Shown here: positions 637-62,230 of the stretch, in pieces | Layout: each line of letters begins with the position of its first letter | How positions within the stretch are numbered: position 1 is the first letter of the stretch | Virus record (IMG/VR): IMGVR_UViG_3300044833_000182 | Location: 1 to 64,000 of that record | Strand: one strand, 5' to 3' | DNA length: 64,000 bases | Source: a virus | The notes under the pieces: model-generated | The model's input: only the letters and a program-made list of their open reading frames with translations | Told to the model about the DNA's origin: nothing | The model's database searches: none | Made by a program: the position numbers and the translations under genes

Positions 637-846
637 ATGGCCGACAAGCAAAGCAGTTTGTTCGACGTGACGGTGACCGTGAGCGACCTCCTTCCGCGCA
701 CTGTCAAGGACGCCAGCGGCGTGGAGCATGAGTTGCTTGCCGTCATCCTCGACCGGCCCGCCGTCATGCCGCTGGGCTGGGAGATGGAAGAACCTCCGCC
801 GCTGGGCAAAATCACGCTGTTGCTGGGCAATCCTGTGAAGGGATGA
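637..846 (+). CDS. Hypothetical protein; N-terminus resembles portal N-terminus
   Basis: Tightly packed ORF; MADKQSSLF vs portal MADKWSTLF. Confidence 0.6.
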   Translation: MADKQSSLFDVTVTVSDLLPRTVKDASGVEHELLAVILDRPAVMPLGWEMEEPPPLGKITLLLGNPVKG

Positions 847-850
847 ATTA

Positions 851-2338
851 GTGGCCGACAAATGGTCCACCCTGTTCGCACCCAAGGCCGCCAAGGGCGA
901 CATGGCCGGCTCCCCGGCCGACGCGCAGGCCCGCGCCCGCTACCTGGCGAGCCTGCACAGCCCGGCGCCGGCGCAGTGGACCAGCAGCCACCTTGCCGAG
1001 GACATGCGCCTGACGGGCGCGGTGTACGTCGCGGTCAAGGTGCTGTGCGATCAGGCTGCCTCCGCCGAGGCGGGCGTCTTCCGCGTTCCGAAGGGCAAGC
1101 ACGCGGCCGACCCCGACGCCCGCGAGCCTGTCGAGCCCGATCACGCGCTGGCGACCCTGCTCCGCCGCCCCAACACGCAGGAAACAATGGGCGGCCTCCT
1201 GCGACGGATGACGCAGCAGATATCTCTCACGGGGACTGCTCTCGGCTGGCGAGTGGACGACGACTACGAGCCGCGCGAGGTGTGGAGCGTGCCCACGGGA
1301 ACGTATCAGCCCGTCGCCCCGGGTGGGTACTACCCGCAGGGGGCATACCGCATTCAGCCGTACTTCCCCGGGCCGTTCGCCATGATGCCGGGGATGGGAT
1401 TGGGTGGCGTCATCGTCCCGGCGGAGCAGATGATCGCGGCCCGCTACCCGCACCCGCTGCTTCCCGCGCACGAGGGGTATTCGCCATTGAACGCCTGTGC
1501 ATTGCCGCTGGACACGATCGAGATGATCGACCGGTCGCGGGCAAGTCGGGTCAGGAGAGGGGCGAACGTATCGGCGGCTGTGGAACTGGATCCGGGGATG
1601 AGCTGGCCCGACGGCGACGGCATGACGAGGCTTCGCGCGGAGATTCAGCAGTTGCTCGGTGGACCGGACAAGGCGGGTGGGATCGGCATACTTGGTCCGG
1701 GTATGAAACTGAATCAGGTCAGCAGCGACAATGTCGAGGTCGGCTGGATCGAGTCGTGGGGGCAACTGGTGAGCTTTGTCCTGTCGGTCTTCGGCGTGAC
1801 AAAGAGCCTGGCGTTCATGAGCGAGGAAACCACGTTCGCGGCGCTGTACGCAACGCTGAAACAGTTCGACCTGTTCACGCTGTGCCCGCTGCTGCAACTG
1901 ATTGCCGACGCGATCAACATTAGCCTGGTGTGGCCGTTCTACGGCGAGGAGTACTTCGTCGAGCTGAAGCCGAAGAAGATCACTGACGAGGATGCCGTCG
2001 CGAAGAAGGTGCAGCTTGCCGCGTCGGTCGGGGCGATCACGAAGAACGAGGTGCGCATCGCCCTGGACTGGGAACCGACGAAGGAGGCGTGGGGCGAGGA
2101 GCCCGCCGTGGTCGCGAAGGTGTCCGAGAAGGGCGATGTGGACCGCAGCGGCAGCATCGGCGGCGCGGGCGGTCCCGCAGGCGGCGGCAACGGCAAGCCT
2201 CCCGAGGAGCGGGGAGAACCTGCGGAAGTGGCGAAGGGGCGGGACAAGAACCCGCAGGGGCGCGGCAGTCTGGGCGACAGGAAACCGCTGGCAGGCGCTG
2301 GCAAGAGCAACGGTCACGCGGGGGGTGGGCGATGGTGA
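851..2338 (+). CDS. Portal protein (HK97 family)
   Basis: VYVAVKVL, HALATLLRRPN, GYSPL, ITKNEVRIALDWEP motifs; position. Confidence 0.9.
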   Translation: MADKWSTLFAPKAAKGDMAGSPADAQARARYLASLHSPAPAQWTSSHLAEDMRLTGAVYVAVKVLCDQAASAEAGVFRVPKGKHAADPDAREPVEPDHALATLLRRPNTQETMGGLLRRMTQQISLTGTALGWRVDDDYEPREVWSVPTGTYQPVAPGGYYPQGAYRIQPYFPGPFAMMPGMGLGGVIVPAEQMIAARYPHPLLPAHEGYSPLNACALPLDTIEMIDRSRASRVRRGANVSAAVELDPGMSWPDGDGMTRLRAEIQQLLGGPDKAGGIGILGPGMKLNQVSSDNVEVGWIESWGQLVSFVLSVFGVTKSLAFMSEETTFAALYATLKQFDLFTLCPLLQLIADAINISLVWPFYGEEYFVELKPKKITDEDAVAKKVQLAASVGAITKNEVRIALDWEPTKEAWGEEPAVVAKVSEKGDVDRSGSIGGAGGPAGGGNGKPPEERGEPAEVAKGRDKNPQGRGSLGDRKPLAGAGKSNGHAGGGRW

Positions 2339-2345
2339 CGCGGGC

Positions 2346-2958: not shown

Positions 2959-2964
2959 AGGTCC

Positions 2965-3689: not shown

Positions 3690-4046
3690 ATGATCCTTGC
3701 ACTGATCGATGTATCCCCGGCCGACCACGACGGCCGCACAAACCTGATCGCGAACCTGGAGCACGTCCAGACGATCACGCTGGAGGCTGACGGCCGACTG
3801 CTGCTGGCCATGACGGACGGGACGAAACTTCTGGCCGAACGCACCGAGGGGACGTGTGCGGTTCTCAACCGAGCGTGCAACGGCATTCAGGCGCAGTCCC
3901 GGCTGACGCCGCCGAAGGCGAAGGACGCGCCGAAGGATGGGCCGAAGGCCGACGCGAAGCCGGAACCCGTCCCGCCGCAATCGCCGCCGACCCCGGCGCC
4001 CGTACCGCACGCGCCGCCCCAGAGGCCCGCGAAGACGAAGGAGTAA
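3690..4046 (+). CDS. Hypothetical protein, Pro-rich C-terminus
   Basis: GAGGA RBS, ATG at 3690. Confidence 0.6.
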   Translation: MILALIDVSPADHDGRTNLIANLEHVQTITLEADGRLLLAMTDGTKLLAERTEGTCAVLNRACNGIQAQSRLTPPKAKDAPKDGPKADAKPEPVPPQSPPTPAPVPHAPPQRPAKTKE

Positions 4047-4049
4047 TCC

Positions 4050-4256
4050 GTGGCTGATACTGAGGCATATCTGCCGCCGCCTCCGAGTTACCTTAGCCGA
4101 ATGGAGTACAAACGCGAATTGCGCAACAAGGCCACGAGGTTGTTCCGGGAAAGCGGCGTCCAAGGAATGTACCTGCGAGGCCTCGCAAGATTGGACAAGA
4201 AGCCTTCTCTTGAGGACGGGGAGACAGCTCAGAATTTCGGCAGAGGAAGGCTTTAG
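4050..4256 (+). CDS. Hypothetical protein
   Basis: AAGGAG RBS, GTG start. Confidence 0.55.
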   Translation: MADTEAYLPPPPSYLSRMEYKRELRNKATRLFRESGVQGMYLRGLARLDKKPSLEDGETAQNFGRGRL

Positions 4257-4278
4257 CACCTGACCCAAGGAGTAACCC

Positions 4279-4506
4279 GTGGCTGATGCAAACGACGAAG
4301 CGGCGAAGGTCCAGGCCGCCCGCGAGGACGGCGTCCACGTCCTGACGTACCTGCAAACGCTGTCCCGCGCTTACCCCGGCCGCGTGGAGCCGGGGCTGCT
4401 GGCGTTCTTGGAGGCGGCGAACGGGTGTGCGTTCAGCGGCGAGGTGCTGGCGCGGGAGATGGTGAAGGCGGCGCAGACGCCGCACTTGCAAGCGAAGGCG
4501 GTGTAA
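4279..4506 (+). CDS. Hypothetical protein
   Basis: AAGGAG RBS, GTG start. Confidence 0.6.
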   Translation: MADANDEAAKVQAAREDGVHVLTYLQTLSRAYPGRVEPGLLAFLEAANGCAFSGEVLAREMVKAAQTPHLQAKAV

Positions 4507-5145: not shown

Positions 5146-8100
5146 ATGACCCAGCTCCTGACCCGACCCGTGCGCCGCCGCCCGCTGGAGCCTGACGCTC
5201 TGGCGCTGCTGGCCGCGCGCGGATCAAATCAAGGAGACGGGTACTCTTACAAAATCGCTCCCGACGCCTACGCTCTCGACGCTCCCGCGTCGACAGAAGA
5301 TCCGGAGTTCAACGACCGCAGGCAAAGCATCACCTTCCCATTCGCTGCCAGTTTAGGGCGCGATCGCGTGGGCGATTGGCTGGACGTGGAGGGGATCGAC
5401 ACCCGGGCGCATCGTTTGTACCCAGTGGCGGCGCTCGACCATTTCAAATGGATGCGCTGGCCTTTGGGATTGACAGAAGATCCCGATAGTAGAGAATACA
5501 GGGTATGGATTGACGAAGACGCTGGCCTGGCGTGGTGCGAGGTCTTCATCAATTCACACGTCAAGGAGGCAGAGCAGGCTTTCAAGATGTTCCGCTCCAA
5601 GATATTGCGGGCGGGAAGCATCGGGTACAGGCCGCTTCGCGTGTCCAAACTCCCGGCCGATCCAGAGCAAGGGCAGTTGAAGCCGGGACTGACGCTGCAC
5701 GAGGTTGAACTCCTCGAAACAACGCTCGCCGTGTTACCCGCAAACGGCGATGCCGTCAGACGCTGCCTCATGGACGGCATCGAGGGCGAACCCCTCGCTG
5801 CGGGGTTCAAGTCGCTCCTCGCGCCTTTTGCAAGCGCCGCCCCGGAGATGGTTGTCGGCGGCTGGCAAACCAAGGACACGGCCCACAAACCAGCCGGCTC
5901 CTCCGAGGGCGGACAGTTCACCAGCGGCGGAGGGGGCGGCGCAGCGGCAACCACCGGCGCGCAGGCCAAGAAGAAGGAGAAACGCCGCGGCAGCGGCGGC
6001 ACATCAGCCCCCGCGCCTCGCCCGTCGCTCGCCCGTCGCGTAACGAGCGCCCTTGCCCGGCACGCCTCCACCATCGTCAAGGCGGGCCTGGGCGTCCCGA
6101 AGGAGAAACTCGCGGCCCTCTACCTGCACGTCCCGGAGTCGATGCGCGCCCCCGTGGGGAACCTCTGGCACGCAACGCACGCCGTGCTGATGTCCGCGAA
6201 CGCGGCAACGCAGGCGCTGGCCAAGCGGGTGATGGAAGACAAGGGCCTCGACGAGGCGGCAGTAACGAAGCTGGCGTGGCAGTTGGGCGCGGTGGACCTG
6301 GCGTTCCAGGGAACCATGATGGCAACGGCCATTGCGGCCGCCCCCGTGGCCCACGGCCTCGCGCTGGCGGCCAAGGCGGCGAGCTACTGCCCGGTGGCGA
6401 GCGCGGCCTACATCCTCCATGCCAGCGCGTCGCCGGGCAAGGCGATGAAGACGATCAAGAGCGCCTACGCTCTGCTCAAGGAGAAGTTCCTCGACCAGAT
6501 GCGCGGCAGCGCCGCCTTTGCCTGGGGTGCGGTGCGGAACCCGCTCACGTCGGCCGTCACCGTGGGCGCCGGCCACAAGACGGCGGGCGATTGGACGGAC
6601 GAGGGGGCGGCGCTGATCGCGGACGCCTACGCGGCGGCGGCGAACCCGGATATGTGGCTGGCGCTGTTCTCCGCGGCGTTCGACGACGTACGCGACGTGG
6701 CGGAAGCGGTGGAGATGGCGAACGCCTGCGCGGGAGAGGGCGGCTCACTGTCGGGTTCCGACAGTGAGAAGACGTTCCCCGGCAAGGCGGCGGACGGCGA
6801 GGTACACCGCTTTGCCTCGACGCAATTCGATCTTCCCGAGCCGATCCGTTCGCGCGTGCTGGAGCTGGCAGCGAAGATTCCCGACGAGGATCTCGCAGAG
6901 GATGGTCGCGAAGAACGCCCCCACATTACCGCACGCTTCGGGTTGCACGGGGATGACGGCGAGGACGGGGCGGCTGCTGTGCGCGGCGTTGTCGGCGGGT
7001 TCGGCCCGGTCAAGATCCGGCTTGGCGGTAAGTCGATCTTTGCCGGGGACGATTTCGACGTGGTGAAACTGGACGTGGAAGGCGACGATTTGCACCGTCT
7101 GCACGATGCGCTCGGCGACCTGAATCACATCGACACGCACCCGAAGTATCAGCCACACTGTACTTTGGCCTATGTCAAGCCGGGCATGGGCAAGAAGTAC
7201 ATCGGGAAGAGCGGGTTGGAGGGAGAGGAGGTTACTCTCGACAAGCTGGTGTACAGCGACCGCGAGCGGAACGAGACGGAGATTTTGCTGAAGGCCGACG
7301 GCAAGTCCTTCACCCCCTCCACCAAGGACGCCGTTGCCCCCTCGATGTCCGCGGGCGACATGACCACGGGCGGCGCGTTCATCGGCCCGGCGTCCTTCGG
7401 CAGGGGGATTACGCTTCATCGGGGCCGTCCCGCGATCCTGAAGCGCATCCGGCGGAAGAAACCGGGGCTTGCGGTGGGTAAGACGTTCGAGCCGGACGGC
7501 AAGACGGAGACGGCGCACAAACCCGCAGGCAGTCCCGAGGGCGGGCAGTTCACGACGGGAAGCGGAGGAGGCAGTAGCGCGGCTGGCGACGGTGGGAAGA
7601 AGCCGAAGAAGGCCGCGGCGAGCAAGGCGGAACCCGCCCCTCACCCCGGCAGCGTCCACGGCTCGGCCGTGACCGTCAAGCCGAGCAAGGAACGCGCCTG
7701 GGACGGCAAGCCGGCGCCGCTGAAGACGGCGCTCACAAAACAAGAGACTGGACAGGTGGGAGAAGCGGTGGCGCTGGCGTACCTCAAGAGCGTGATGGGC
7801 GCCGCCGACGCCCGGCCGCTGAATCTGGAGATGCCCAACGCGCCCATCGACTTGATCGAGGATCACGCGCCCACAGAAGTCAAGGCTGGACTCGCCGGGA
7901 ACAGCAAGAAAGCCCAGCAATGGCGACTGACGTTCTCCAAGGAGAGCGCGAAGGAAAAGGCGCTGTACGAGACGATGAGCAAGGAGGAGCGGGCGGCGTG
8001 GAACGCTCAGAAGCAGAAGCGCATCAAGGAACGAAAGGACGCGATGGTCAAGGTTCTGGAGAAGCGCACTGGGGGAAAGGTTAAGCCGCGTACACTCACC

Positions 8101-9121: not shown

Positions 9122-10525
9122 ATGCCAGGACTCATGGATCAGTTGACGGAGAACAACCGCAAGCTGGACGAACAGCGTGCGTTGATTCAGCAGGGGCGCG
9201 CCGCGCGCCACACCGGAGCGGTCCCCGACCGCGCGCCGCGCGCCCGCCGCGGCGAGAACATCATGTCCAGCCGGGGGTTTCAGATCGGCAAGGTGATCGG
9301 CGTCGTCGGCAAGAACGCCAAGATGCGTCGCGACGAAGCGAAGATCGAACTGGAATTCTGTGACCGGCTGAACAACCAGATGGCCGCGCAGGGCTGGCGC
9401 GGCGAGCACCCCGACGGCGTCCTCATTCCCATCTGGCCCGACGGCTTCGACGAGAAATCCCTCGACACGGCGACCTGGAAGGAGATGAAGGACCTCCTCT
9501 ATGCGGGCGTCGATGGGGCCGACGAAGGGGAGATGCAGTGGCTGCGCGGCCAGTACGGTCAGAAGGCCGCTATCTCTCCGTCGATGTCCTGGAACGACCA
9601 GACCACCGGCGGCAGCTTTGTTGGCCCGCCCACGTTCGGGCCGCCCATCGAACTCCTGCGGGCGAAAGAGGCCATGCTCCAGGCGGGGGCTTCCCTCGTC
9701 CCTCTGGGGCCGACGGGTTCGCTGGCCATGCCACGCCTCGCGGCCGCGACCACGGGCGGATGGATCGGCGAGAATACGCAGGCAAGCGCGACCCCGCCGA
9801 AGACCGGCTCGCTGCTCCTCCGCGCGAAGAAGGCGTTCGGCATCGTCGCGTTCGCGGCCGAATTCCTCCGCTTCGGTTCGCCCGCGGCCGAAATGATCGT
9901 CCGCAACGACCTCATGCTGACCGTGTCGCTCGTCGCCGATAAGGGTCTGCTCGACGGTCCCGGCTCGGACAACGTCCCCCTGGGTCTCGCCACGATGGGC
10001 GCCGCCGCGGGCAACCCCTACGGCATCACCATCGTCACGCCGGCCAACGCCAACCAGCTTGCCCCGCAGGACGTGTACAAGTTTATCAGCGGCATCGAGG
10101 AAGCCAATGGGACCATGACGGCGTGGATCATGCGCCCCTCCATGTGCTGGTCGATCTACGGCGCCCGCTGGACGCCCTACTCCGGCGGCACGTCTCAGGG
10201 CGGCTTCATGTTCGAACTGATGCGCGGCATGGGCGACGAGATGGACGCCTACCTGTCCGGCCACAAGGTCGTCCGCAGCACGCAGGTCAGCAACAACCGC
10301 GGCGTGACCGATCACTCGCGGACCTACATCCTCGGTCTGAACGGCCCCAACTACCTGATGGGCGTCTTCGGTGCAATCGAGGTGATGACCACCGCCGAGG
10401 GATGGAACCTCGTCAGTTCGGACCAGGTAGCCGTGAGGGCGCTGATGCACGTCGATGGGGGCATGCGCAACAACGCCGAGTGTGCTTTCATGGACCTGAT
10501 CAACCCTGCCGTCGTGGCTGGTTGA
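9122..10525 (+). CDS. Major capsid protein (HK97 fold)
   Basis: TGGSFVGP, IELLRAK, GWIGEN, DKGLLDGPGSDNVPLG, DQVAVRALMHVDGG. Confidence 0.9.
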   Translation: MPGLMDQLTENNRKLDEQRALIQQGRAARHTGAVPDRAPRARRGENIMSSRGFQIGKVIGVVGKNAKMRRDEAKIELEFCDRLNNQMAAQGWRGEHPDGVLIPIWPDGFDEKSLDTATWKEMKDLLYAGVDGADEGEMQWLRGQYGQKAAISPSMSWNDQTTGGSFVGPPTFGPPIELLRAKEAMLQAGASLVPLGPTGSLAMPRLAAATTGGWIGENTQASATPPKTGSLLLRAKKAFGIVAFAAEFLRFGSPAAEMIVRNDLMLTVSLVADKGLLDGPGSDNVPLGLATMGAAAGNPYGITIVTPANANQLAPQDVYKFISGIEEANGTMTAWIMRPSMCWSIYGARWTPYSGGTSQGGFMFELMRGMGDEMDAYLSGHKVVRSTQVSNNRGVTDHSRTYILGLNGPNYLMGVFGAIEVMTTAEGWNLVSSDQVAVRALMHVDGGMRNNAECAFMDLINPAVVAG

Positions 10526-10569: not shown

Positions 10570-10591
10570 ACCCAATCAGGAGGTATTTTCC

Positions 10592-11029
10592 ATGCTGGTT
10601 GATTTGGTCAATGAGGTGCTGTGCGCCCAGGCGCTTCCTCCGCAGATCCTGACCGCGACGGCGCAAGGCTCTGCCATCGACATGTCCGACTGCCTCGCCG
10701 GAACCGGCGCCATCATCGACGTGGGCGCCATCACGGCTGCCAACGTGACCTCGCTCGTGGTGCAGATCGAGGAGTGTGCCACGACCAACGGAACCTTCAC
10801 GGCGATTCCCGGCATGGTGGCCACCATCACGGCGACCACCACGCCGGGCAACCTGCACCAGGTGGTTCGCGGTCTGCGCACGCAGCAGTTCGCCCGCGCC
10901 AACGCCGCCACGTTCGCGGCAACCACGACCACGGGGGCATTCCCCGTCAACGTGGAAATCGTGGCACAGAAGAAGTACGTGGGCATTGCGGGCCAACTGG
11001 GAGGCTTCGACAACTATCCGGGGACGTAG
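10592..11029 (+). CDS. Putative head decoration/structural protein
   Basis: Follows capsid gene; beta-rich; GSAIDM motif. Confidence 0.55.
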   Translation: MLVDLVNEVLCAQALPPQILTATAQGSAIDMSDCLAGTGAIIDVGAITAANVTSLVVQIEECATTNGTFTAIPGMVATITATTTPGNLHQVVRGLRTQQFARANAATFAATTTTGAFPVNVEIVAQKKYVGIAGQLGGFDNYPGT

Positions 11030-11082: not shown

Positions 11083-11880
11083 ATGCCGCGTTACAAGGTC
11101 GCTCTGGGGATTCTGGCGGTCGGCGGGCAGGAACGGTGCGAGGTGGGCTCGTTCCGCGAGACGGCGGCGGTTCACTGCGCCGGCCGCGCCGATATGGACC
11201 TGATCACCATACCCATTGCGCGGACGCCGACGCCCATTGCGCGCAACGTGCTGGTGAAGGTCGCGCGGGAGCATGGCTGCGATTTCCTGGTCATGCTCGA
11301 CGAGGATATGGGAGTGCCGCCTGCGTTCTTCAAGGAGGCGCTCGCGTTCCTCGTCAAGCATCCCGGCCCGGCAGCCATCGGCGTTCCCTACTGCACGTCC
11401 TCGCCGCGCGAGGACGTGCTGGTGTTCGAGCATGCTGCCGCTGAGAGCGGCGCGCCCGGCGCTGCGTGGGCTATCACGAACGTCGTGCGGGAGGACGCAG
11501 CGCGGCGAACTGGGATTGAAGAGTGCGCCAACATCGGGACAGGGTGTATCGCATACTCCATGTCCTTTTTCAACGCCCTGACGCTGCCGTACTTCGATTA
11601 CAGCTACAACGAGGATCACACACAGGTTATTGAAACCGAAGACTGTTACTGTCACCGGCGCGCCTGGCAGAAGGGCCTTGACCTCTTCGTCCATTGGGAT
11701 TTCTGGGGGAATCACTACAAGCTGAAGCGCGTGTCGAAGCCTATTCCGATTGGGCGTGATGATGTAGTCAAGGCGTTTGCCCGCGACGCTCAAGCGGTTG
11801 ATCGGTTGGCCGCAAGGGGGCAACGCCAAGCAGTCAATGGCACGTTGTCTGTGCGTGGCAACGGCTGCAAAGTGGAGTGA
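11083..11880 (+). CDS. Glycosyltransferase (GT-A fold)
   Basis: IARNVLVK, FLVMLDEDM (DxD), IGTGCIAY, TEDCYC. Confidence 0.7.
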   Translation: MPRYKVALGILAVGGQERCEVGSFRETAAVHCAGRADMDLITIPIARTPTPIARNVLVKVAREHGCDFLVMLDEDMGVPPAFFKEALAFLVKHPGPAAIGVPYCTSSPREDVLVFEHAAAESGAPGAAWAITNVVREDAARRTGIEECANIGTGCIAYSMSFFNALTLPYFDYSYNEDHTQVIETEDCYCHRRAWQKGLDLFVHWDFWGNHYKLKRVSKPIPIGRDDVVKAFARDAQAVDRLAARGQRQAVNGTLSVRGNGCKVE

Positions 11881-12697: not shown

Positions 12698-12820
12698 GAC
12701 GTGCCTGCCTCCAACAGGTGCTTCGTGGCCAGAGCCGGCCGGCGTGCCAACAACACGCCCCGGCTCGCTTATTCTACCCTACCAAACACGATTCAACCAT
12801 CTCGGGAGGAAGATAATTCC

Positions 12821-44832: not shown

Positions 44833-44853
44833 CGCCCTGAAGAGAAAACGCTG

Positions 44854-45432: not shown

Positions 45433-46049
45433 TGCCCGCCGCCGACTTGGCCCGCCGTTCCACCTGCCGCCCGGGACTGACGAGCCGCAGCTACCGCCGG
45501 GAGCACCCGTCGAAGGCGCTGGCCCCGGCCAGCGATTGCTGCCTGCTGGACGCGGCCCGACAGGAGAGGATCGCCCAGCACGCCGCCCGCCGCCGAGAGG
45601 GAATTGCCGTGACGCGACAATCGATCCTCGCCGAAGTGTCTGCCGAACGCGACCGTCAGGACCGCGACTACGGCGCCAGGCATGATGACGGCCTTCAGCG
45701 AAACGACTGGTCTGCCATCGCCGCCCGTCATCTCGGGCTCGCTTCCAGCGACGGCGCGGAGACGGACGCCGACCGCTGGCGTCGCCAACTCATCCGCCTC
45801 GCAGCCGTTGCCGTGGCCGCCATCGAGTCAGCCGACCGCAAGGGCCAATCTCACCCGGAACTGGCGGCACGATTGCAGGCGCTCGCCGATCAGCACTGCG
45901 AGCCCGTGTTGCTGCTGGCGGACGGTGCGCCCGGGATGGAGTACCGGTCGCGCACTCCCTACGGCGTGTTGCTGAGTCAGGCGAGCGGGTGGGAGAAGGC
46001 AAATCAGATGAGGACGATTGAGCCAACGAAAATGGAGGGCGTCTCGTGA
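45432..46049 (+). CDS. MazG-like helical protein (alternative GTG start 45609)
   Basis: EVSAERDRQD..W..RRQLIRLAAVAVAAIES. Confidence 0.5.
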   Translation: MPAADLARRSTCRPGLTSRSYRREHPSKALAPASDCCLLDAARQERIAQHAARRREGIAVTRQSILAEVSAERDRQDRDYGARHDDGLQRNDWSAIAARHLGLASSDGAETDADRWRRQLIRLAAVAVAAIESADRKGQSHPELAARLQALADQHCEPVLLLADGAPGMEYRSRTPYGVLLSQASGWEKANQMRTIEPTKMEGVS

Positions 46050-51316: not shown

Positions 51317-51364
51317 ACGTTCTGACAAACAACGCAACCCCATCGCCCACGAGGAACTGTCGCA

Positions 51365-51571
51365 ATGAGGTACTACCTGGAGATCGAAGAGAACAACGAC
51401 CGCCTCCCGGTCGGCAACCTCCGCGGTTACACCACGCTCGACGAAGCGAAGAAGGAAGCCGAGAAGTACGTTGACGACACTCTCCCCGCCAACCGCGTTC
51501 GCGTCTTTGCCCACGTCGCGACCGCGTATCTTCGCGGCGACGGCGAGGCCGCCGTTCAGGACGAGAAGTGA
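51365..51571 (+). CDS. Hypothetical protein
   Basis: First ORF after promoter. Confidence 0.6.
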   Translation: MRYYLEIEENNDRLPVGNLRGYTTLDEAKKEAEKYVDDTLPANRVRVFAHVATAYLRGDGEAAVQDEK

Positions 51572-51607
51572 ACCCCATCGCTCCTTCACCCCACGAGGTC
51601 ACCTACC

Positions 51608-52794: not shown

Positions 52795-53115
52795 ATGGCC
52801 AGCATCTTTCTTCAGTGCGTGGTGGGCGGCGGCACGGAAGCTCCGCCCACCGGCGCCCCGTCGCTCCTGATGGAGCCGGTCGTTGTTCGGGAAGCGAACC
52901 TCGTGGTGAACGAGATCGCCTGCGCGAACGGCCGTGCCTGGCAGGTTCGCCGTACTTCTGCGCTCAAGGCAGGCGCAAAGGAGCCGGGCGACGTTCACCG
53001 GGTGACGTTCGCCTCGGGCGTGTGGTCATGCTGCTGCAAGGCGTGGCAGTATCGGGGCGCGTGCAGGCACGCCAGCGCCGTCAAGCAACTGCTCAACGGG
53101 GAAAGTCATGGGTAA
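52795..53115 (+). CDS. SWIM zinc-finger protein
   Basis: WSCCCKAWQYRGACRH. Confidence 0.75.
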   Translation: MASIFLQCVVGGGTEAPPTGAPSLLMEPVVVREANLVVNEIACANGRAWQVRRTSALKAGAKEPGDVHRVTFASGVWSCCCKAWQYRGACRHASAVKQLLNGESHG

Positions 53116-53344
53116 GAACGTGTGCTCCCACGTCCGCAAGGCGTTCTTCCGCCAGCAGATGGCGGACGGCCGATTTCAGGTGCGCGAGGCCTGCCTCGAT
53201 TGCTGGGAGAACCCGCGCGGGAGTGGAGTCTGGGTGAGCCGGAGCGAGTTGATCGTCCCGCTGGAAGACCTGCCCTTGTATCCGGACGCGCAAGAACGGG
53301 TCATCCCTGGCCAGCCCCGGCAAGGCGATCTTTTCGGGGGCTAA
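53108..53344 (+). CDS. Hypothetical protein
   Basis: Overlapping coupled ORF. Confidence 0.55.
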   Translation: MGKNVCSHVRKAFFRQQMADGRFQVREACLDCWENPRGSGVWVSRSELIVPLEDLPLYPDAQERVIPGQPRQGDLFGG

Positions 53345-55542
53345 TGATGGCGAGCATCTTCACCGTTCCCGTGGAAGCAGCAAGCAACACCTCTACAGCG
53401 GACATCGACGCCGCGGAGATTCGCCGCGCCATGACCCTTTTCGGGGCTCACGAGAAACTGGTGGAGATCCGCGCTGTCTTCGGCGAGCGTCGCAAGGCGA
53501 GAGGGCGATTCCATCCAGGCACAGACCTTGACGCTTTCGTAGAGACGGCGCGGATGTTTTCGGGCGAGGGAGCGACCAGCATCTATTTCACCATCAATCC
53601 TGTACCAACGGAGCCAGCCAAACTCACCACCGACAATGACGTTTTGCATCGACAGCTACTGTTCATTGACGTGGACGCTCTCACGCCCGACGCACACAGC
53701 AACAGCAGCGAGCCGGAGCACGAGGCGGCGCGAGAAATGGCGCTTGCCGTCCGCGAAGCACTTGCAACGGAAGGCTGGCCGACGCCGATTCTCGCCGACA
53801 GCGGCAACGGCTGGCATCTCTATTACTGGATCGACCTGCCCGCTGACGAGCCCACCCGGGAACTTATCTCCGCTTTCCTGAAGCGGCTCAAGACGAAGTT
53901 TGACGGCGGCGGCAAGATCGACCCGGCCGTCTCCAACGCCGGGCGAATCAGCAAACTCCCCGGAACATGGGCGCGTAAAGGTCTGGACAGTCCAGACCGT
54001 CCCCACCGACAGGCGCGCCTGCTCTGGGTTCCGGAGGAAAAAGAGCTTGTTTCGCCAGAACAGATTGGAGCGTTTCTCGCAGCAACTACCGAAAAGACCC
54101 ACAAGGCCAACGGGACAGTGCCGCCCTTCTCGGCGTTGAAGCCGCGAGTGAACGCCAGCGGCAGCGATTCCGCCTACGCCCGCAAAGCGCTCGCGGACGA
54201 ATGCGCCCGCATGGCGATGACTTCCAGCGGCGGCTTGAACACCCAGCTTTTTAAGTCCGGCGCCGCGTGCGGGAACTTCGTCCCGCACCTTCTTTCCGAG
54301 GCTGAGGTTTTCGATTGTCTTCTAGCGGCCGCGCATACGGCGGGATGCGACAACCCCGCCAAGGATGAGGACACCCTCCGGCGGGGCATCCACCAGGGCA
54401 TGGAGACGCCCCGGTATGCACCCAAGCCAGCGCCCGTCAGTGCGCCGCCTTCCGCGACGGAAGCCAACGGCGTTCTGGAGCGGGTCACAATCACGGCCAT
54501 TGAAATAACACCGCGAAAGGTTGAATTCCTCTGGCCGGGCCGGATTCCCGCCAACAAATTGACTACCTTCGCCGGAGTTGGGGGACTGGGAAAAACTTTT
54601 TCACTCTGCGACATAGCCGCCCGCTTGAGTACCGGCGCTCCCTGGCCCGACGACCCGGACAGCGCTGCGCCCAAGGGGCGGTCGCTCATTATCAGCGGCG
54701 AGGACGACGCCGACGACACGCTTGTCCCCCGTCTGATCGGCATGGGGGCCGACCTTAACCGCGTGTCCTTCCTGACCATCAAGGCCCTTGACCATTTCAC
54801 CCTCCAGCAGTTGCCCTTGCTGGAGCGCGCCTTGGAAGAGATGCGCGGCGAATGCCGATTCCTCGCCATCGACCCGCCCACGGCCTACCTCGGAGGGATC
54901 GACGATCACAAAAACGCCGAACTCCGGCAACTGCTGACGCCCCTGAAGAGTTTCGCGCACAAGCACAACGTCGCCATCGTTTTCAACACGCACATCACGA
55001 AATCCGGAGGCGTCAAGGTAGAGGCGATGATGCGCGTGATGGGTTCCGTTGCCTGGGTCAACGCCGTCCGCGCGGCACACCTGTTCGCCCGCGACCCCGA
55101 TGATAAGGACCGCCGGCTCTTCCTCTGCATGAAGATGAACGTGGCCAAGGAGAAGAGGGGCCTCGCCTATCGGCTCGTGGGCGAGCCGGGCGAGGACGCA
55201 GGGCGCCTGGAATGGATGGGTGAAGTGGACACGTCGGCGGACGACGCCATCAACGCTGGCGGCAAGCAGTCACGCGGGGTTGTCGCTTCCCGGTGGTTAA
55301 TCGAGCGGTTCCGCGAAAACCTCGAATGGCGGTCAGACGACCTGATCGAGGCCGGTAGGCAGAACGGCGTCAGCCGCAACGCCCTCTTCGAGGCGAAGGA
55401 TCGCCTTTGCCTGCCCAAGGCAAGGAAGACCACCCACACCAACGGAGACACCTGCTGGGTCTGGTGGGTTCCGGCGGACTGGCCTCATTTCCAGGCGTCC
55501 GTTAAACCGGAAGCCGCTGGGCCCGATGAAACGCCGTTCTGA
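53344..55542 (+). CDS. Primase-helicase (RepB/AEP-like primase plus AAA_25 ATPase plus C-terminal winged-helix-like domain)
   Basis: FIDVD, DSGNGWHLY, KLPGT; GVGGLGKT, SGEDD, LAIDP. Confidence 0.85.
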   Translation: MMASIFTVPVEAASNTSTADIDAAEIRRAMTLFGAHEKLVEIRAVFGERRKARGRFHPGTDLDAFVETARMFSGEGATSIYFTINPVPTEPAKLTTDNDVLHRQLLFIDVDALTPDAHSNSSEPEHEAAREMALAVREALATEGWPTPILADSGNGWHLYYWIDLPADEPTRELISAFLKRLKTKFDGGGKIDPAVSNAGRISKLPGTWARKGLDSPDRPHRQARLLWVPEEKELVSPEQIGAFLAATTEKTHKANGTVPPFSALKPRVNASGSDSAYARKALADECARMAMTSSGGLNTQLFKSGAACGNFVPHLLSEAEVFDCLLAAAHTAGCDNPAKDEDTLRRGIHQGMETPRYAPKPAPVSAPPSATEANGVLERVTITAIEITPRKVEFLWPGRIPANKLTTFAGVGGLGKTFSLCDIAARLSTGAPWPDDPDSAAPKGRSLIISGEDDADDTLVPRLIGMGADLNRVSFLTIKALDHFTLQQLPLLERALEEMRGECRFLAIDPPTAYLGGIDDHKNAELRQLLTPLKSFAHKHNVAIVFNTHITKSGGVKVEAMMRVMGSVAWVNAVRAAHLFARDPDDKDRRLFLCMKMNVAKEKRGLAYRLVGEPGEDAGRLEWMGEVDTSADDAINAGGKQSRGVVASRWLIERFRENLEWRSDDLIEAGRQNGVSRNALFEAKDRLCLPKARKTTHTNGDTCWVWWVPADWPHFQASVKPEAAGPDETPF

Positions 55543-55835: not shown

Positions 55836-56213
55836 ATGAAACAGATCATTTTGACCCTTCCCGAGAACGTCGAGCTTCTCCTGAACGAGGCCGCCACTCG
55901 TCACTTGATGAGCCTGGAAGGCTACGCTTCCCACGTCCTGACCCGGGCGCTTCAGCGGGGCAGTCGCCATCAGGGACAGACCCCTTACCGCCGCAAGAAC
56001 GCCGCCGCGTTTCTCCACAGACTCGCAGCCGAAAAGACCCTCTGGGTTGCCACGGACTTGTGGACTCGCGCCCGGGAAGACGGCGTCAGCCGACAGGCCA
56101 TCTTCGAGGCGAAGGAGGATTCGCTGATCGAGATCCGACGCAGAAAGATGGAAGAGTCCGTCTGCTGGATCTGGGACCTGAGCCAGCTTGTCCAGAGCAA
56201 CGATCACTCCTAA
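55836..56213 (+). CDS. RHH-like N-terminus fused to a copy of the primase C-terminal domain
   Basis: GVSRQAIFEAK..CWIW vs primase GVSRNALFEAK..CWVW. Confidence 0.65.
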   Translation: MKQIILTLPENVELLLNEAATRHLMSLEGYASHVLTRALQRGSRHQGQTPYRRKNAAAFLHRLAAEKTLWVATDLWTRAREDGVSRQAIFEAKEDSLIEIRRRKMEESVCWIWDLSQLVQSNDHS

Positions 56214-58150: not shown

Positions 58151-58779
58151 CCCCAGCCGTCTTCCTCGCCGACCTGCGCCGCGCCGGCTTTTCCCTCCGC
58201 TCCGAGGCCGGCAAGCTCCTCATCGCCCCGTCGAGCAAACTGACCCCCGCGCAGGTTGCCCTGATCAAGCAGCACCGGGACGCCCTCCTCCTCCTCCTTG
58301 CCGACGAGGAGGCGGCCCTGTCGGCGCTGGCCGACCGCGCCTTTCTGGGACAACCCGTTCGCGGACCCACCGAGCAAGACCGCGCACGAGCCGACCGTGC
58401 TGCTGAGGTGGGAGAGCGGCGAGGTAATGGCGTTCAGTCGTCGCTTCGTCTTGTGGTGGGAGGCGCGAGCGGCAGAGGGCAGGGCGACCGCGGAGAAACT
58501 CGCCCGGCGAGACCGGGAAAAGGCGAAGAAACGGGCGAAGGCGCGGAAGCAGAAGCAGGCCCGGCTGTTCGACCCGGAACAGCGCCCGGAGGCGATGTAG
58601 GCGTGTGGACCGGATGGATCAAGATGCTGGGCGAGCCGTGGCGGCGGCTCGTTGCCCACGAGGACCGCTGGGAGTGCTGGCGCCGCTTGCTCGACCTGCG
58701 GCCGGGCGTGGACGAAGCAAGTTTTGAGCTTCTCGTGAACGAAGGGCAGACGCCAGACCATCGAAGGAAACCCAGATGA
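58147..58779 (+). CDS. TubC N-terminal docking-like protein; 3' part ambiguous (possible frameshift)
   Basis: FLADLRRAGFSLRSEAGKL..APSSKLT..IKQHRDALL. Confidence 0.5.
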   Translation: MTPAVFLADLRRAGFSLRSEAGKLLIAPSSKLTPAQVALIKQHRDALLLLLADEEAALSALADRAFLGQPVRGPTEQDRARADRAAEVGERRGNGVQSSLRLVVGGASGRGQGDRGETRPARPGKGEETGEGAEAEAGPAVRPGTAPGGDVGVWTGWIKMLGEPWRRLVAHEDRWECWRRLLDLRPGVDEASFELLVNEGQTPDHRRKPR

Positions 58780-59093
58780 CCGACCGCGACGCGCTCAACA
58801 ACGACCTGGAAGCCGGCCCCGCCCTCACCCTCGCCGCCGGCTTGTTCGTCATCGGCGGCGGCCGTCCGGCGGCGCGGCAGACACAGGAGGGACGCAACAT
58901 GGCTACCGCCGCCGAATGGACGGTGCTGGACAACCTCGAACACCACTGGCCCGTGCGAACGAACCTGCCGCTGGATGTGGCCGAGGCCGCTTACGAAGCG
59001 TGCGAGGCCCGGGGGTGGGTGAGCGACGGGGCGGTTACGCCAGCTGGGAAGGTGGAGTTGCTCAAGCCGCTGACGATGGAGAGCGAACCATGA
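58776..59093 (+). CDS. Hypothetical protein
   Basis: ATGA overlap. Confidence 0.5.
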   Translation: MTDRDALNNDLEAGPALTLAAGLFVIGGGRPAARQTQEGRNMATAAEWTVLDNLEHHWPVRTNLPLDVAEAAYEACEARGWVSDGAVTPAGKVELLKPLTMESEP

Positions 59094-59377
59094 CCGATTA
59101 TGAAGCACTCAAGATGGAACTGGAAGGCGTCAAAAAGGCGTTCGCCATCATGGAAAAGGGCCTGGAATCGGCGTGCGAGCTGATGGACGATCTGAAGCAG
59201 CAGACGCGAGCGCAGGCCGCCGAGATCAACCGTCTTGCAGACGAGGCGGCGCGGCTGCGGAGGCTGTGTATTGCGCACCACGTTGATCCCGACCGGTGCG
59301 GCGAGTTTCCCGGTGGGGAGCAGTGCGGCCGAAGGCATGGGCATGAAGGGAAGTGCTGCTGGCTGAATGGAGACTGA
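59090..59377 (+). CDS. Coiled-coil protein with Cys/His tail
   Basis: ATGA overlap. Confidence 0.55.
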   Translation: MTDYEALKMELEGVKKAFAIMEKGLESACELMDDLKQQTRAQAAEINRLADEAARLRRLCIAHHVDPDRCGEFPGGEQCGRRHGHEGKCCWLNGD

Positions 59378-59391: not shown

Positions 59392-59628
59392 ATGACCAGA
59401 CGCAACATTCAGAACGCCCTCGCCCGCGCCTTCAATGAAGGTTCGGACTCGTGTCTCGCCGGTCTCAAGCCGTGCGACAACCCGTACAAGGACGGTGGCT
59501 TGCCTGCCCTCTACGAGAAATGGCGACAAGGCTGGTGGCATATTCAACTAAATTGGTGTGCCAGCGTCAACGGCCGCTGGCCGGCTGGCGCGCCGCGGCC
59601 GTGTGCAGCGGGAAGGAGGGCGAAGTGA
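59392..59628 (+). CDS. Rmf/CrpP-like small protein
   Basis: RAFNEG..CLAG..CDNPY...WRQGW. Confidence 0.55.
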   Translation: MTRRNIQNALARAFNEGSDSCLAGLKPCDNPYKDGGLPALYEKWRQGWWHIQLNWCASVNGRWPAGAPRPCAAGRRAK

Positions 59629-60176
59629 GCGCAAACGTCAACAACCCGACTCATCGAAAGAGCAAACAGCGCCTTGCCGTGGAAGCAGCAATCCGCACCA
59701 ATCGCAGCTTGACACACAAGGCTCTGGCGAAACGGTTCGGCGTCTCCCCGCAGAGGATATCCCAGATCAACCTGGCGATGCCTCCCGCTGAACGCTTGTT
59801 CGGAAAGAGATGGGAGCCGACAGAGGCGCAGCGTAACCGAGCCGACGCTATCGCCGCTGCTCTGCGAGAACGCTGTGACCGTTCCGATACGGAGATAGCC
59901 AGGCTGGCTGGTTGCGCCTGCTCCACTGCGGGAAGGCACAGGAAGCGTCTTGGGTATCCCCGGTACTTCGCCCCAAACAGGAACCGAGGAGTCAAGGGTC
60001 AGCGCCGCCTTGCTATCGAAGCAGCGCTTCTCGAAAAGCCGATGAGTTACGGCCGTATCAGGGAGATCGCTGAGGATTTGGGCGCGTCGTACGAGTACGT
60101 TTCTTGGTTGTGGTTCCATCTGAAGCCGGCCGATGCGCCCGATCTGCGCAAGGTGAAAAGGAGGGGGACGTCATGA
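59625..60176 (+). CDS. Multi-HTH DNA-binding protein 1
   Basis: ALAKRFGVSPQRISQI, DTEIARLAGC, EIAEDLGAS. Confidence 0.7.
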   Translation: MSANVNNPTHRKSKQRLAVEAAIRTNRSLTHKALAKRFGVSPQRISQINLAMPPAERLFGKRWEPTEAQRNRADAIAAALRERCDRSDTEIARLAGCACSTAGRHRKRLGYPRYFAPNRNRGVKGQRRLAIEAALLEKPMSYGRIREIAEDLGASYEYVSWLWFHLKPADAPDLRKVKRRGTS

Positions 60177-61415
60177 CCTCACGGCTTGCACCGGAGGCTT
60201 GCAGGCAGTCTTGGCCGGATACATCGGCGGCAACGGCGACCCCTGCAATAGGGCGCATGACGACGCCCCTTTATCTCTAATGTTTCGAGCAGCGTTTTCG
60301 TCCGCAGGCGATTCATGACCACACGCACGGCACACAAACTGATCCCGACTTCTCCGGTTGGCCTTCTCACAGTGGCCGCATTGGGAGCAAGTTCGCGACG
60401 TGTTCCGTGGATCGATGAAGACCACGGGAACGCCAGCGCGAGCCGCTTTGTATGTCAGGAATCCCCGAAGCTGATGAAACGCCCACCCCTTGAGACGGTT
60501 GAGTTGATCAGGCCCGCGAGCGGTTGTCCGGCTGCCGATTCCCTGGAGATCCTCCAGAGCGATCACGCTGCCGGTGTCTTTGGCCTTCTCGACGATGCAC
60601 TTAGTGATTCGATGGTTCTCGTTTGCCCTGAAGCGAGCCTCCTTCTTGCGGATCTTTCTGAGATGACGCCGGGCGCTCTTGCTACCGCACCTGTTCAGGT
60701 TGCGCCGATGCTTCCCGTAGCGCTTACGGACTTCTTCCACCTTCGCCCCGGAGAAGACTTCTCCATCGCTGTCCACGGCAAGGTTTACCACGCCAAGGTC
60801 AACGCCGATTACATCGGAAACGGTGATGGACTCGGGCGCTTCGTCCTTGATCTGGACGTGAAGGAAGTATCCGCCGTCTGGGCGCTTGACGAGCGTGGCG
60901 CTGGTGGGGTATTGGTCGCGAAGAGCGTCCCGCTGGAAGTCGCCGACCGAGGTAGCAAATCTTTCGCGGCCTTGCAGGAGTGTCAGGCCGAAAGTCCAAT
61001 CATTTTCATGGAAGCGAAAGATGCGAACGTCATAGTCGATGCTGGTCGGATTAAACATCGAGTCGCACCTATTAGGAACCTTGAGCGCCGTACAGGCGCG
61101 GGCGATGGCGCGAATGGTCAGGTTGGCGGACAGGCCGAATTCGGCCCGCACAGTGTGGTAACAGGCTTCCTGAACCTCGATCTTGTTTGTGCTACCGATG
61201 GCGCGGCAAACGTTCGCGATACGGTTGCAAGCAGCGGCGAACGCTTTGAGTGTGGCGTCAATCTCCAACGCCTGTTCGGCTGTGGGATCAAGCTTACAGC
61301 AGATGGTACGCACAAGTTCCATGCGACTATTTTACCACGAAAGATGTCGCTTTACCATGTCGGTAGGCGACGGTTTTACCTACTGCCTAAAGGCAGTGAT
61401 TCCCGGGAGTGGGAC
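60170..61415 (-). mobile_element. Non-autonomous IS200/IS605-family (tnpB-only) element
   Basis: Left-end hairpin ACTGCCTTTAGGCAGT, right end GCAAGCCTCCGGTGCAAGCCGTGAGGTCATGAC; removal restores an RBS and GTGA overlap. Confidence 0.75.
60171..61322 (-). CDS. tnpB: TnpB RNA-guided nuclease
   Basis: GVDLG, LEDL, TSRTCSQCG, CRACG..ADENAARNI. Confidence 0.93.
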   Translation of the reverse strand: MELVRTICCKLDPTAEQALEIDATLKAFAAACNRIANVCRAIGSTNKIEVQEACYHTVRAEFGLSANLTIRAIARACTALKVPNRCDSMFNPTSIDYDVRIFRFHENDWTFGLTLLQGRERFATSVGDFQRDALRDQYPTSATLVKRPDGGYFLHVQIKDEAPESITVSDVIGVDLGVVNLAVDSDGEVFSGAKVEEVRKRYGKHRRNLNRCGSKSARRHLRKIRKKEARFRANENHRITKCIVEKAKDTGSVIALEDLQGIGSRTTARGPDQLNRLKGWAFHQLRGFLTYKAARAGVPVVFIDPRNTSRTCSQCGHCEKANRRSRDQFVCRACGHESPADENAARNIRDKGASSCALLQGSPLPPMYPAKTACKPPVQAVRS

Positions 61416-61883
61416 GTGAGCGCACCAGGTCAGAGATTCCCCCGCCGCCTTGCCATTGAGGCGGCAATTCGAGCCGATCCCTCCGCTCCGTTTCCCGTGA
61501 TCATCGCGGAGGTAGAGAGGCAGATGCCCGCAGCGGAGCGGATTCCGAGGAAGATGGGGCCGCCGTCGAGTAAAGCTCCCGCCATCCGGGCGGCGCTGCT
61601 GGACAACCCCCGGCAGACAAACGACGAGGTTGCCCGGAAGGTGGGATGTCACCCGAGTTACGTCAGCGATATTCGTTCCCGCTTCGGGTTCCCGACCGTC
61701 CGTAAGCCGAAGCCCATCGGCAAGGTTCGTCGGCTTGCGGCGCAGATGCTCCTCGCGGAACCCATGCGCCGCGGCCGGGTGCAGGAGGTTGCGGACGCTC
61801 TTGGCGTCTCGCGGGGGTGCATCTACGCCATCTGGTTCAGGATCAAGCCGGCCGGCGCGGTTGACTTGCGGAGGGCGAAGTGA
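61416..61883 (+). CDS. Multi-HTH DNA-binding protein 2 (paralog of 59625-60176)
   Basis: RRLAIEAAI, NDEVARKVGC, WFRIKPAGAVDLRR. Confidence 0.7.
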   Translation: MSAPGQRFPRRLAIEAAIRADPSAPFPVIIAEVERQMPAAERIPRKMGPPSSKAPAIRAALLDNPRQTNDEVARKVGCHPSYVSDIRSRFGFPTVRKPKPIGKVRRLAAQMLLAEPMRRGRVQEVADALGVSRGCIYAIWFRIKPAGAVDLRRAK

Positions 61884-62230
61884 GTATCCGCAAACCGCGA
61901 GAGACTGATTTGATCCGCCCCGCCCTGCAACTGCTGGCGATGCGTGGCTGCTTCGCGTGGCGGTCAAACTCGGGTGCGGCTCGCTTGCCTGGCCGCGGCG
62001 GCAAGCTGCAACTGGTGCGGTTCGGCACGCCCGGGGTGTCAGACCTCCTTGCAGTAGCGCCGGGCGGTAAACTGATCGCTGTCGAACTGAAGGCCGGGAA
62101 GAACCCGCAGACGAAGGCGCAGGCCGCGTTCGCGGAGCAGGTTGTGGCGCGCGGCGGGATCTACCTGCTTGTCCGTGACCTGGCGCAACTCAACGAGGAA
62201 CTCGACCGCTTGCTCAAGGAGGCACGATGA
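61880..62230 (+). CDS. VRR-NUC-like nuclease / resolvase
   Basis: GVSDLL..IAVELKAGK..Q..F. Confidence 0.8.
   Translation: MSIRKPRETDLIRPALQLLAMRGCFAWRSNSGAARLPGRGGKLQLVRFGTPGVSDLLAVAPGGKLIAVELKAGKNPQTKAQAAFAEQVVARGGIYLLVRDLAQLNEELDRLLKEAR

Follow-up and report, generated by a model that had tools for sequence, protein, structure and literature searches.

The gene nrdA of Aeromonas phage Aeh1 is split by a free-standing homing endonuclease gene, mobE (Crona et al. 2011, PMC3045599), in what has been called the single known instance of such a split (Barth et al. 2023, PMC10448857). Insertion of restriction-modification genes with long target duplication has been described from empty-site comparisons of bacterial chromosomes (Furuta, Abe and Kobayashi 2010, PMC2853133), and experiments on bacterial transformation and conjugation have established homology-facilitated illegitimate recombination (HFIR), in which incoming DNA joins one end by homology and the other illegitimately (PMC3240628). 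Two families of short repeated signals are described from phages: the promoter early stem-loop (PeSL) cassettes of T4-type phages, one conserved and intergenic family with an early promoter and a terminator stem-loop (Arbiol et al. 2010, PMC2839356; Comeau et al. 2014, PMC4122927), and the start-associated sequences (SAS) of Cluster K mycobacteriophages, which follow a single 13-bp consensus, GGGATAGGAGCCC, at 10-20 genes and across subclusters and are never coding (Pope et al. 2011, PMC3203893). Here we analyze the first 64 kb (the window) of the 96,108-bp contig IMGVR_UViG_3300044833_000182, from an uncultured tailed phage, in which unrelated genes lying close together repeatedly start alike, each pair with a sequence of its own.

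The likeness of neighboring start regions in this genome is real and well above chance. With moderate confidence, we read most of these shared starts as recombination scars of foreign DNA that was joined at or just after translation starts. The best-resolved cases appear to be insertion scars, often of selfish nuclease genes, in which the copied start would keep an adjacent gene or piece of a gene expressed. Homing-endonuclease insertion with rebuilt gene ends, long target duplication, and HFIR are all known, and the process is a recurrent and unusually legible case of their kind, not a new mechanism. It is modestly novel; its interest comes from how many events can be read in a single genome and from a split gene whose start is grafted. 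How mosaic phages take up genes without breaking packed, translationally coupled operons is usually inferred from relatives, and here six or more events can be resolved base by base. They point to a rule by which an insertion survives when two copies of the start region remain, so that both the newcomer (or stranded piece) and the resident stay translated.

Shared starts among neighboring genes

The genome has a G+C content of 64% (0.639 genome-wide) and nearly every gene on the plus strand, and about 157 genes were called with a self-trained codon model and start choice aware of ribosome-binding sites (RBS). Gapped local alignment of the region from -40 to +30 around every start (12,246 pairs) placed genes at most four apart, and in register with the start codon, in all 11 top alignments. 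Permutation of gene order upheld the expectation that near pairs exceed random ones: in the window, 4 of the 10 best start-region matches lie at a gene distance of two or less, where 0.42 is expected (P=3e-4), and in the whole genome 8 of 10 do (P<5e-5). Five or more identities across residues 2-9 occur in only 7 of 11,935 pairs, and the three best N-terminal peptide pairs, named here by the positions of their two starts, are 637/851, 28299/28502, and 10592/12821. A count made without annotation found eight direct repeats of at least 18/20 nt at a spacing of 30-300 bp, against 0.37 expected from the long-range rate, and a gene start falls at the same offset in both copies of 7 of 23 short-range repeats versus 1 of 65 long-range repeats. 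The effect is confined to N-terminal segments, of which four near pairs exceed the 99.9th percentile (0.32 expected) while C-terminal and mid-protein segments give no such pair, and it is absent from the control phage Charlie. Generic enrichment of short-range repeats was rejected as a marker, because other phage loci show it through intragenic tandem repeats; the specific feature is the register of the repeats with gene starts.

All strong repeats end at or span a start codon, on the coding strand and at the RBS position, and several extend 9-23 nt into unrelated coding sequence or are coding throughout. By eye, those in the window consist of RBS, start codon, and codons; the repeats range in length from 15 to 55 nt. 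Every repeat in the window occurs exactly twice in the genome, with 2-4 copies per family outside the window, which agrees with the claim of an earlier sequence-only reading that no single motif is shared. The intervals between strong repeats have a G+C content of 0.559, 0.571, 0.603, and 0.601, below the genome value and low like the nuclease cassettes.

The sequence-only reading had listed nine pairs, all of which were found where it placed them; they differ in strength when each is given an empirical p value against the far-pair null. Four are individually strong (637/851, 4050/4279, 10592/12821, and 28299/28502; best p 8.5e-5 to 3e-4), and two further strong pairs in the window, 44854/45432 and 59625/61880, were absent from that list. 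Four are marginal (p about 1e-3 to 5e-3), all on the plus strand. Upstream of 36046/36249, CCTCCGGAGC(T/C)TC at 36029-36041 recurs at 36231-36243 (12/13 nt, p about 4e-3), and upstream of 51365/51608, AACCCCATCGC with CCACGAGG at 51336-51354 recurs at 51571-51598 with a 9-nt insert (p about 3e-3). The MASIF starts of 52795/53347 match at 13/14 nt (52795-52808 and 53347-53360, p about 5e-3), and 58776/59090 (MTDRDALNNDLE / MTDYEALKMELE) match at 29/40 nt (58776-58815 and 59090-59129; N-terminal Smith-Waterman p about 1e-3). The ninth, 25882/26188 (MRRSCE / MKRVCE; 25882-25899, plus strand), is not above chance (nucleotide p=0.22, amino acid p=0.014).

These weak pairs are where chance and selective reading could act, in that N-termini and RBS regions are biased in composition and look-alikes may be picked among about 100 neighbor pairs. 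One listed pair does sit at chance level, the four marginal pairs stand against 0.5-1.5 expected per metric among about 300 near pairs, and the window was itself chosen from a very large scan. However, the permutations, the annotation-free counts of repeats and of starts within them, the lack of effect at C-termini, in mid-protein segments, and in phage Charlie, and the independent biological corroboration of 10592/12821 all oppose it. Chance is thus refuted as a global explanation, as which we consider it very improbable, and stands for individual weak pairs only.

Neighbors would also start alike if they had arisen by tandem gene duplication and then diverged until nothing but the start region could be recognized. 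Some neighbors do share internal segments (the helicase C-terminus and gp55836; 33487/33756), and the helix-turn-helix (HTH) copies described below are true paralogues. Yet the nine pairs, stripped of their first 15 residues, score no higher than shuffled controls, all-versus-all BLASTP finds no paralogy for any pair of starts sharing a repeat, and the partners belong to unrelated families (portal, methyltransferase, sigma-like). With none of the nine being a full-length paralogue pair, the earlier description of the paired genes as unrelated stands, and tandem duplication is scarcely credible as their source.

A split gene with a grafted start and other probable nuclease-associated scars

At 10592/12821, the copied start lies on one piece of a broken gene. 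The 5' piece, a glycosyltransferase gene (gp11083; 11083-11880, plus strand), is 47% identical to residues 1-239 of P0121 (E=1e-74), and the 3' piece, a methyltransferase gene (gp12821; 12821-13657, plus strand; Methyltransf_24), is 46% identical to its residues 211-468 (E=1e-66). P0121, the closest homologue of gp12821, is a single glycosyltransferase-methyltransferase protein of 470 aa that covers both pieces. Between them lies an insert of 940 nt (11881-12820) with a low G+C content (0.572) that contains an HNH homing-type endonuclease gene on the minus strand (11834-12697; phrog_374 HNH endonuclease, 1e-63), 32% identical over 227 aa to the endonuclease at genome positions 84447-85130. P0121 spans both pieces and the HNH gene occupies low-G+C DNA between them. 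An endonuclease gene thus inserted into a gene whose two parts are still joined in a relative, and the 3' piece took a start of the gp10592 type.

The grafted start comprises TTCC, the ATG, and seven codons (MLIDLVN; 12817-12840, plus strand) and is identical at 20 of 24 nt to 10588-10611 (plus strand), the start of gp10592 (MLVDLVN); an eighth grafted codon follows at 12842-12844, and the peptides agree at 5/8 aa. The motif ML(V/I/L)DLVN is native to the upstream gene, since it is conserved across gp10592 homologues, 14 of 16 of those fetched (the other two, P0107 and P0109, of 136 aa, start later and are without it). Homology of gp12821 to the uninterrupted P0121 begins at residue 9, exactly where the copied start ends, and residues 9-37 are a diverged repeat of gp11083 residues 210-238, with about 30 residues around the split present twice. 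The five differences between the seven-codon copies are four synonymous changes and one Val/Ile, and MLIDLVN occurs naturally in the gp10592 family (P0118), which suggests that the graft came from the gp10592 allele of a diverged relative; it probably travelled with the endonuclease from the latter's former position. We also considered 12821 as an internal Met of the long open reading frame (ORF) 11777-13657, but the in-frame stretch upstream carries no coding signal, and 12821 is therefore a genuine start.

Two features of this pair depart from what the sequence-only reading had proposed. It had described the partners as neighboring genes, and these two lie three genes apart, not adjacent. 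It had also proposed that newcomers arrive expressed from the resident start; that layout is found in the first HNH cassette below, whereas here the copy serves the resident's 3' piece.

Among the cases known to us or in the literature compared, Aeh1 nrdA/mobE is the closest published precedent (PMC3045599). In both phages an HNH gene sits inside a coding region, there are two separately translated pieces (predicted here), and sequences born of the insertion serve as new tails. Unlike Aeh1, this phage has a glycosyltransferase-methyltransferase gene as the target and the endonuclease gene on the opposite strand; the 3' piece begins with a copy of the RBS and first eight codons of a nearby family rather than with unique sequence, and about 30 residues around the split are present twice. 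This would be a second case, after nrdA, of a homing endonuclease breaking up a phage gene, with a new start borrowed from a neighboring gene family.

An endonuclease gene stands between duplicated or split segments at two further places, both beyond the window. In the first HNH cassette (genome 65119-66874), the orphaned N-terminus of the resident gene continues in frame into an HNH_3 domain (ORF 65119-65874), and the resident gene restarts downstream from a diverged second copy of that N-terminus. In the second (genome 84142-85233), an endonuclease gene (phrog_374, 1.5e-53) lies between two versions of a C-terminus. A second TnpB gene (OrfB_IS605 / Cas12f-like TNB; genome 85371-86573, plus strand; L015:5371-6573) directly follows this cassette.

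The first TnpB gene (IS605/Cas12f-like; 60171-61322, minus strand; Pfam OrfB_IS605 7e-11, Cas12f1-like_TNB 9e-23) lies inside the window, at the pair 59625/61880, and is flanked by two HTH copies. The resident junction, at which the end of HTH copy B (61416-61883, plus strand, with the junction running to 61895) meets the GTG start of gp61880, is duplicated before HTH copy A (59625-60176), where an orphan 3' end (..PAGA..RRAK*) and a GTG start at 59577-59636 (plus strand) match 61870-61895. The repeat has a 15/15-nt core, GGAGGGCGAAGTGAG, reaches 22/22 nt with one 4-nt gap, and extends upstream; the HTH copies are 36% identical (tblastn 9e-22). The TnpB block (59625-61879) thus sits 3' of a duplicated junction. 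TnpB/IS605-type elements make no target duplication. Transposon target-site duplications are short (2-15 bp), of fixed length, and adjoin terminal inverted repeats and a transposase, whereas the repeats here vary from 15 to 55 nt and this TnpB block is flanked by a duplication; they were not assigned to that class. Consistent with the earlier proposal that duplicated start regions bracket inserted DNA, such repeats surround the first HNH cassette, the TnpB block, and the segment 4050-4278 described below, and the copies supply signals for expression.

A mitochondrial case offers a further likeness. In atp6 of Allomyces macrogynus, a mitochondrial endonuclease ORF reportedly brings a replacement gene end (Paquin, Laforest and Lang are said to have described it in 1994), and there, as here, an endonuclease ORF stands at a gene end together with a foreign copy while the old end is stranded beside it. 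That case concerns the 3' end of one mitochondrial gene, whereas here several events in one phage affect mostly 5' ends.

Beside the portal gene, a 48-codon ORF (2504-2650) just 3' of it carries SWEQLLSFVLSVFDV, which matches 12 of 15 residues of the most conserved portal motif, SWGQLVSFVLSVFGV (1754-1798). This ORF looks like a remnant of a second portal allele.

Small-ORF pairs and N-terminal likeness

Two of the strong pairs repeat the end of one gene along with the start of the next. At 4050/4279, the stop codon of gene 3690-4046, the RBS, and the GTG start of ORF 4050-4256 (4038-4058, plus strand) are identical at 20/21 nt to 4267-4287 (plus strand; two copies genome-wide), which hold the RBS, a relic TAA, and the GTG start of gene 4279-4506; each repeat thus includes the upstream gene's stop codon, the RBS, and GTGGCTGAT. 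The 229-bp segment 4050-4278 has a G+C content at the 5th percentile (0.559) and no native codon signal. At 44854/45432, a spacer, a relic TGA, and the ATG start of gene 44854-45432 (sigma-70 region 4-like by Pfam and PHROG; 44846-44867, plus strand) match at 21/22 nt the last codons and stop of that same gene with the overlapping ATG of gene 45432-46049 (45424-45445, plus strand), so that the two repeats contain the beginning and the end of gene 44854-45432, respectively. In both pairs, the repeats include a stop codon that still ends a gene in one copy and survives as a relic in its counterpart, which supports a single ancestral junction. Judged by this layout, both look like insertions with long target duplication.

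The pairs 637/851 and 28299/28502 are alike at the peptide level. The 69-aa gene 637-846 starts MADKQSSLF (copy at 635-663, plus strand) and shares 6/8 residues with the portal gene 851-2338 (VADKWSTLF; copy at 849-877, plus strand; Pfam Phage_portal 8.7e-36), an identity reached by 0 of 11,781 far pairs, while the DNA matches only at 12/13 nt around the start. The 59-aa ORF 28299-28478 (MAKRQIKA; 28299-28321, plus strand) matches the start of a 376-aa structural gene with a tail-fibre-like N-domain (MAKRQVKAGSTS; 28502-28524, plus strand) at 20/23 nt and 6/8 aa; the interval between them has a G+C content of 0.571 and a borderline coding signal. The downstream genes hold the native N-termini, since their orthologues or relatives keep these motifs: (K/D)KWS(G/T)xF is conserved at the N-terminus of portal orthologues, and homologues of 28502 (L001-L007), which share only its N-terminal domain, keep (A/G)(S/T)TS, which is KAGSTS here. 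No homologue of gp637 was found among 1.84e9 representative proteins, making it an ORFan, and the small ORFs have no PHROG or Pfam match.

These two pairs fit a recipient and a donor allele joined by one-sided homologous repair, and they also fit selection for a shared tag. The RBS duplication that the sequence-only reading had described is uneven: it is clear at 4050/4279, partial at 10592/12821, and lacking at 637/851 and 28299/28502. The further idea that the resident start is duplicated in situ did not survive for several pairs, which are not fresh duplications because their copies differ mostly at synonymous sites. Differences of this kind imply that the copies are divergent alleles from a donor and a recipient, or else that selection has kept the peptides similar.

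If selection is responsible, a small upstream protein would share the first 8-12 residues of its neighbor as a functional N-terminal tag or mimic, either because one partner must recognize both or because the small protein competes with its neighbor. This would apply to the peptide-level pairs, namely 637 with the portal, 28299 with the fibre-like gene, and perhaps 58776/59090. It is favored by peptides that agree while their codons differ (Ser is AGC versus TCC in 637/851, and 28299/28502 differ by three synonymous changes and one Ile/Val), by the unlike RBS regions upstream, and by gp637, which appears to be a genuine, natively coded gene. On the other hand, this phage has no relatives in which co-variation could show; portal relatives are without such a small gene (in L008 and L009 the terminase lies directly against the portal, and L013 has a small gene unlike its portal); and relatives of the 28502 gene are without a mimic gene. 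A tag would also leave unexplained the DNA-level repeats that include noncoding bases, as well as 10592/12821, where the copy sits on an unrelated enzyme piece made by an HNH insertion. We regard the tag as unlikely, though not negligibly so, as the source of the shared starts.

A precedent for such a tag exists in Cluster K mycobacteriophages, where the adjacent genes gp35 (a small Zn-ribbon protein) and gp36 (an MRE11-like nuclease) share their first 6-9 residues, as in TM4 (MSLADRLGPL / VSLADRLSTP; L018:24776-26195), Paola (L017:17151-18606), and L019-L025. The gene pair is conserved in 269 records, and in nine sampled phages the two N-termini co-vary across subclusters (ADRL/ADRL, AEHL/SEHL, and ADDVAA/ADDAAA). 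DNA-level gene conversion is excluded for this pair, because in all nine of these phages Ser is encoded by AGY in one gene and by TCN in its neighbor. The pattern looks like peptide-level co-evolution of a shared N-terminal tag and not like a scar. We know of no description of this co-variation, and N-termini co-evolving on two adjacent, unrelated proteins may be a more surprising lead than the scars themselves.

Possible routes of insertion and regulatory elements

The scar reading supposes that foreign DNA was joined repeatedly to this genome: free-standing HNH endonuclease genes, a TnpB element, and small accessory ORFs. Surviving events would have left two copies of an initiation region that runs from the last bases of the upstream gene through the RBS and start codon into the first 3-12 codons, with one copy driving the inserted ORF or stranded gene piece and the other keeping the resident gene intact. 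Two routes may have produced them. An in-situ long target duplication would leave near-identical repeats of 21-25 nt that include the RBS, and candidates are 4050/4279, 44854/45432, 59625/61880, and the arrays at 71-81 kb. Alternatively, repair from a diverged relative, homologous on one side and illegitimate on the other, would leave an orphaned recipient allele beside a donor allele; this fits the first HNH cassette and 10592/12821 and may also fit 637/851 and 28299/28502. Selection acting on each allele separately, in the lineage it came from, would confine most differences between alleles joined in this way to synonymous sites.

Both routes have described counterparts. As in long target duplication, direct repeats, here probably derived from the target, bracket the putative insert and are far longer than transposase-type duplications; unlike in the cases of Furuta, Abe and Kobayashi, the repeats here are shorter (15-55 nt), belong to a phage, are centered on translation starts, and are read without empty sites. 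HFIR would likewise leave two copies of one gene start, the recipient's orphaned and the donor's beside it, diverged at synonymous sites, a history here deduced from scar layout. A dedicated process acting at translation starts, as the sequence-only reading had supposed, was not demonstrated; survival selection on random insertions can give a start bias, and the bias would stem from such selection, not from an enzyme that targets starts. The flanking repeats further predict instability, with loss or circularization of the genes between them, and repeats of 21-25 nt at about 90-95% identity could in principle mediate such loss.

Several observations weigh against reading the shared starts as scars. 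Gene 637-846 has a strong and fully native coding signal in its codon usage, and the conserved portal Trp, present in the 11 fetched orthologues that keep the N-terminal segment, is Gln in the 637 copy (CAA versus TGG, three changes) while flanking residues are kept, which is odd for a drifting scar. The RBS regions are unlike in 637/851 and 28299/28502, and the small ORFs at 637, 28299, and 44854 are without a mobile gene; no nuclease gene lies between the copies of 637/851, 4050/4279, 28299/28502, or 44854/45432, and an insertion origin of these four pairs is put forward as an inference. Cluster K suggests that N-terminal likeness of neighbors can be a long-lived, co-evolving peptide feature with no insertion involved. 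At 71-81 kb, the arrays are native in composition and their repeats lie wholly upstream, which fits families of regulatory motifs equally well. Finally, portal homologues reach at most 54% amino acid identity among 5.8 billion proteins, and with no close relative, empty sites are unseen except at 10592/12821, where the 46%-identical fused homologue P0121 serves in their place.

The phage indeed stands apart from all others searched, with no close cultured or uncultured relative. Megablast against 50,697 phage records gave no match to the genome, tblastn with the portal, the major capsid protein, and the primase gave at most 30% identity, and exact 28-mer scans of viral and metagenome contigs found no relative, nor did a scan of genome contigs a close one. 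The related viral loci L008-L013 are too distant for breakpoint comparison. The capsid protein is 27% identical to those of Burkholderia phages, and a second assembly holds an identical portal. The contig ends (window 1-126; genome 95981-96106) overlap exactly over 126 nt, so the genome, of about 95,980 bp, is complete or circularly permuted, with either a circular assembly or a terminal repeat behind the overlap. Neither an Rfam nor a tRNA scan of the genome found anything, and an intron or riboswitch explanation was therefore dropped.

The arrays at 71-81 kb bear on the possibility that the shared starts are local regulatory families, in which co-regulated neighbors carry the same initiation or promoter-proximal element and recombination is a by-product. 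There, elements of 19-27 nt that end at the ATG are common to 2-4 consecutive small genes of native composition, three starts have a hairpin-like element 25-35 nt upstream, and the same pipeline run on Paola and TM4 recovers SAS, extended SAS (ESAS), and a neighbor excess. But the Cluster K motif is genome-wide, with far pairs scoring like near ones (the top pair is 42 genes apart), while the families here are local, with 2-4 copies. Moreover, several repeats run 9-23 nt into unrelated coding sequence or are coding only, and relic stop codons within repeats have no regulatory rationale. We consider a regulatory origin improbable for the shared starts as a whole.

The comparison with described signal families points the same way. 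Like SAS and ESAS, the repeats lie directly upstream of starts, in one orientation, at the RBS position, and clustered among nonstructural genes; unlike them, they have no common consensus, and their similarity drops with gene distance. Membership of the SAS family was rejected for lack of a global motif, the far-pair 99.9th percentile being 13 here versus about 20 in Paola and TM4. Like PeSLs, they are short repeated signals flanking nonessential ORFs, and PeSL recombination inserts, deletes, or circularizes the genes between (PMC2839356), a shuffling that the proposed process resembles in function. Unlike PeSLs, they form many private families of 2-4 copies, centered on the RBS and start codon and often reaching into coding sequence, and without a single shared motif family they were not assigned to that class.

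We give little credence to two more adventurous ideas, that in this phage lineage initiation regions are dedicated recombination sites for cassettes lacking both promoter and start, or that N-terminal peptides are deliberately shared as a recognition tag. If the first were true, it would amount to integron-like capture without an integrase, perhaps by a phage recombinase acting on 20-25-nt repeats, and it would account for the arrays in which every small gene bears one and the same private start. If the second were true of a small protein and its portal or fibre-like neighbor, Cluster K gp35/gp36 would be the first documented case.

The small-gene arrays span genome positions 71600-81000 (L014:7600-16000 and L015:1-1000) and carry private 19-27-nt elements, for example CCCCGAAGGAGTCCCGACC-ATG in three copies. 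The hairpin-like element there is CGCGGCCCCGGCCGCACAC, and a GCGGCC..GGCCGC element is confined to the 79-81 kb family.

Other repeated segments in the window lie within or behind genes. About 60 C-terminal residues (55327-55464) of the primase/helicase (53344-55542) recur at roughly 33-42% identity in the C-terminal half (56031-56174) of the next gene, 55836-56213, including GVSR(N/Q)A(L/I)FEAK, as a duplicated gene end or a shared small domain. The adjacent genes 33487-33759 and 33756-34364 share a small-domain segment with VRLKSGGPxM (56% identity over 32 residues), and residues 727-766 (7324-7443) of a 1026-aa protease polyprotein are 52% identical to residues 144-183 (9563-9682) of the putative major capsid protein. 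A G+C-rich direct repeat of 30 nt (26/30; 37089-37118 and 37353-37382) lies just 3' of two consecutive stop codons and is possibly terminator-like.

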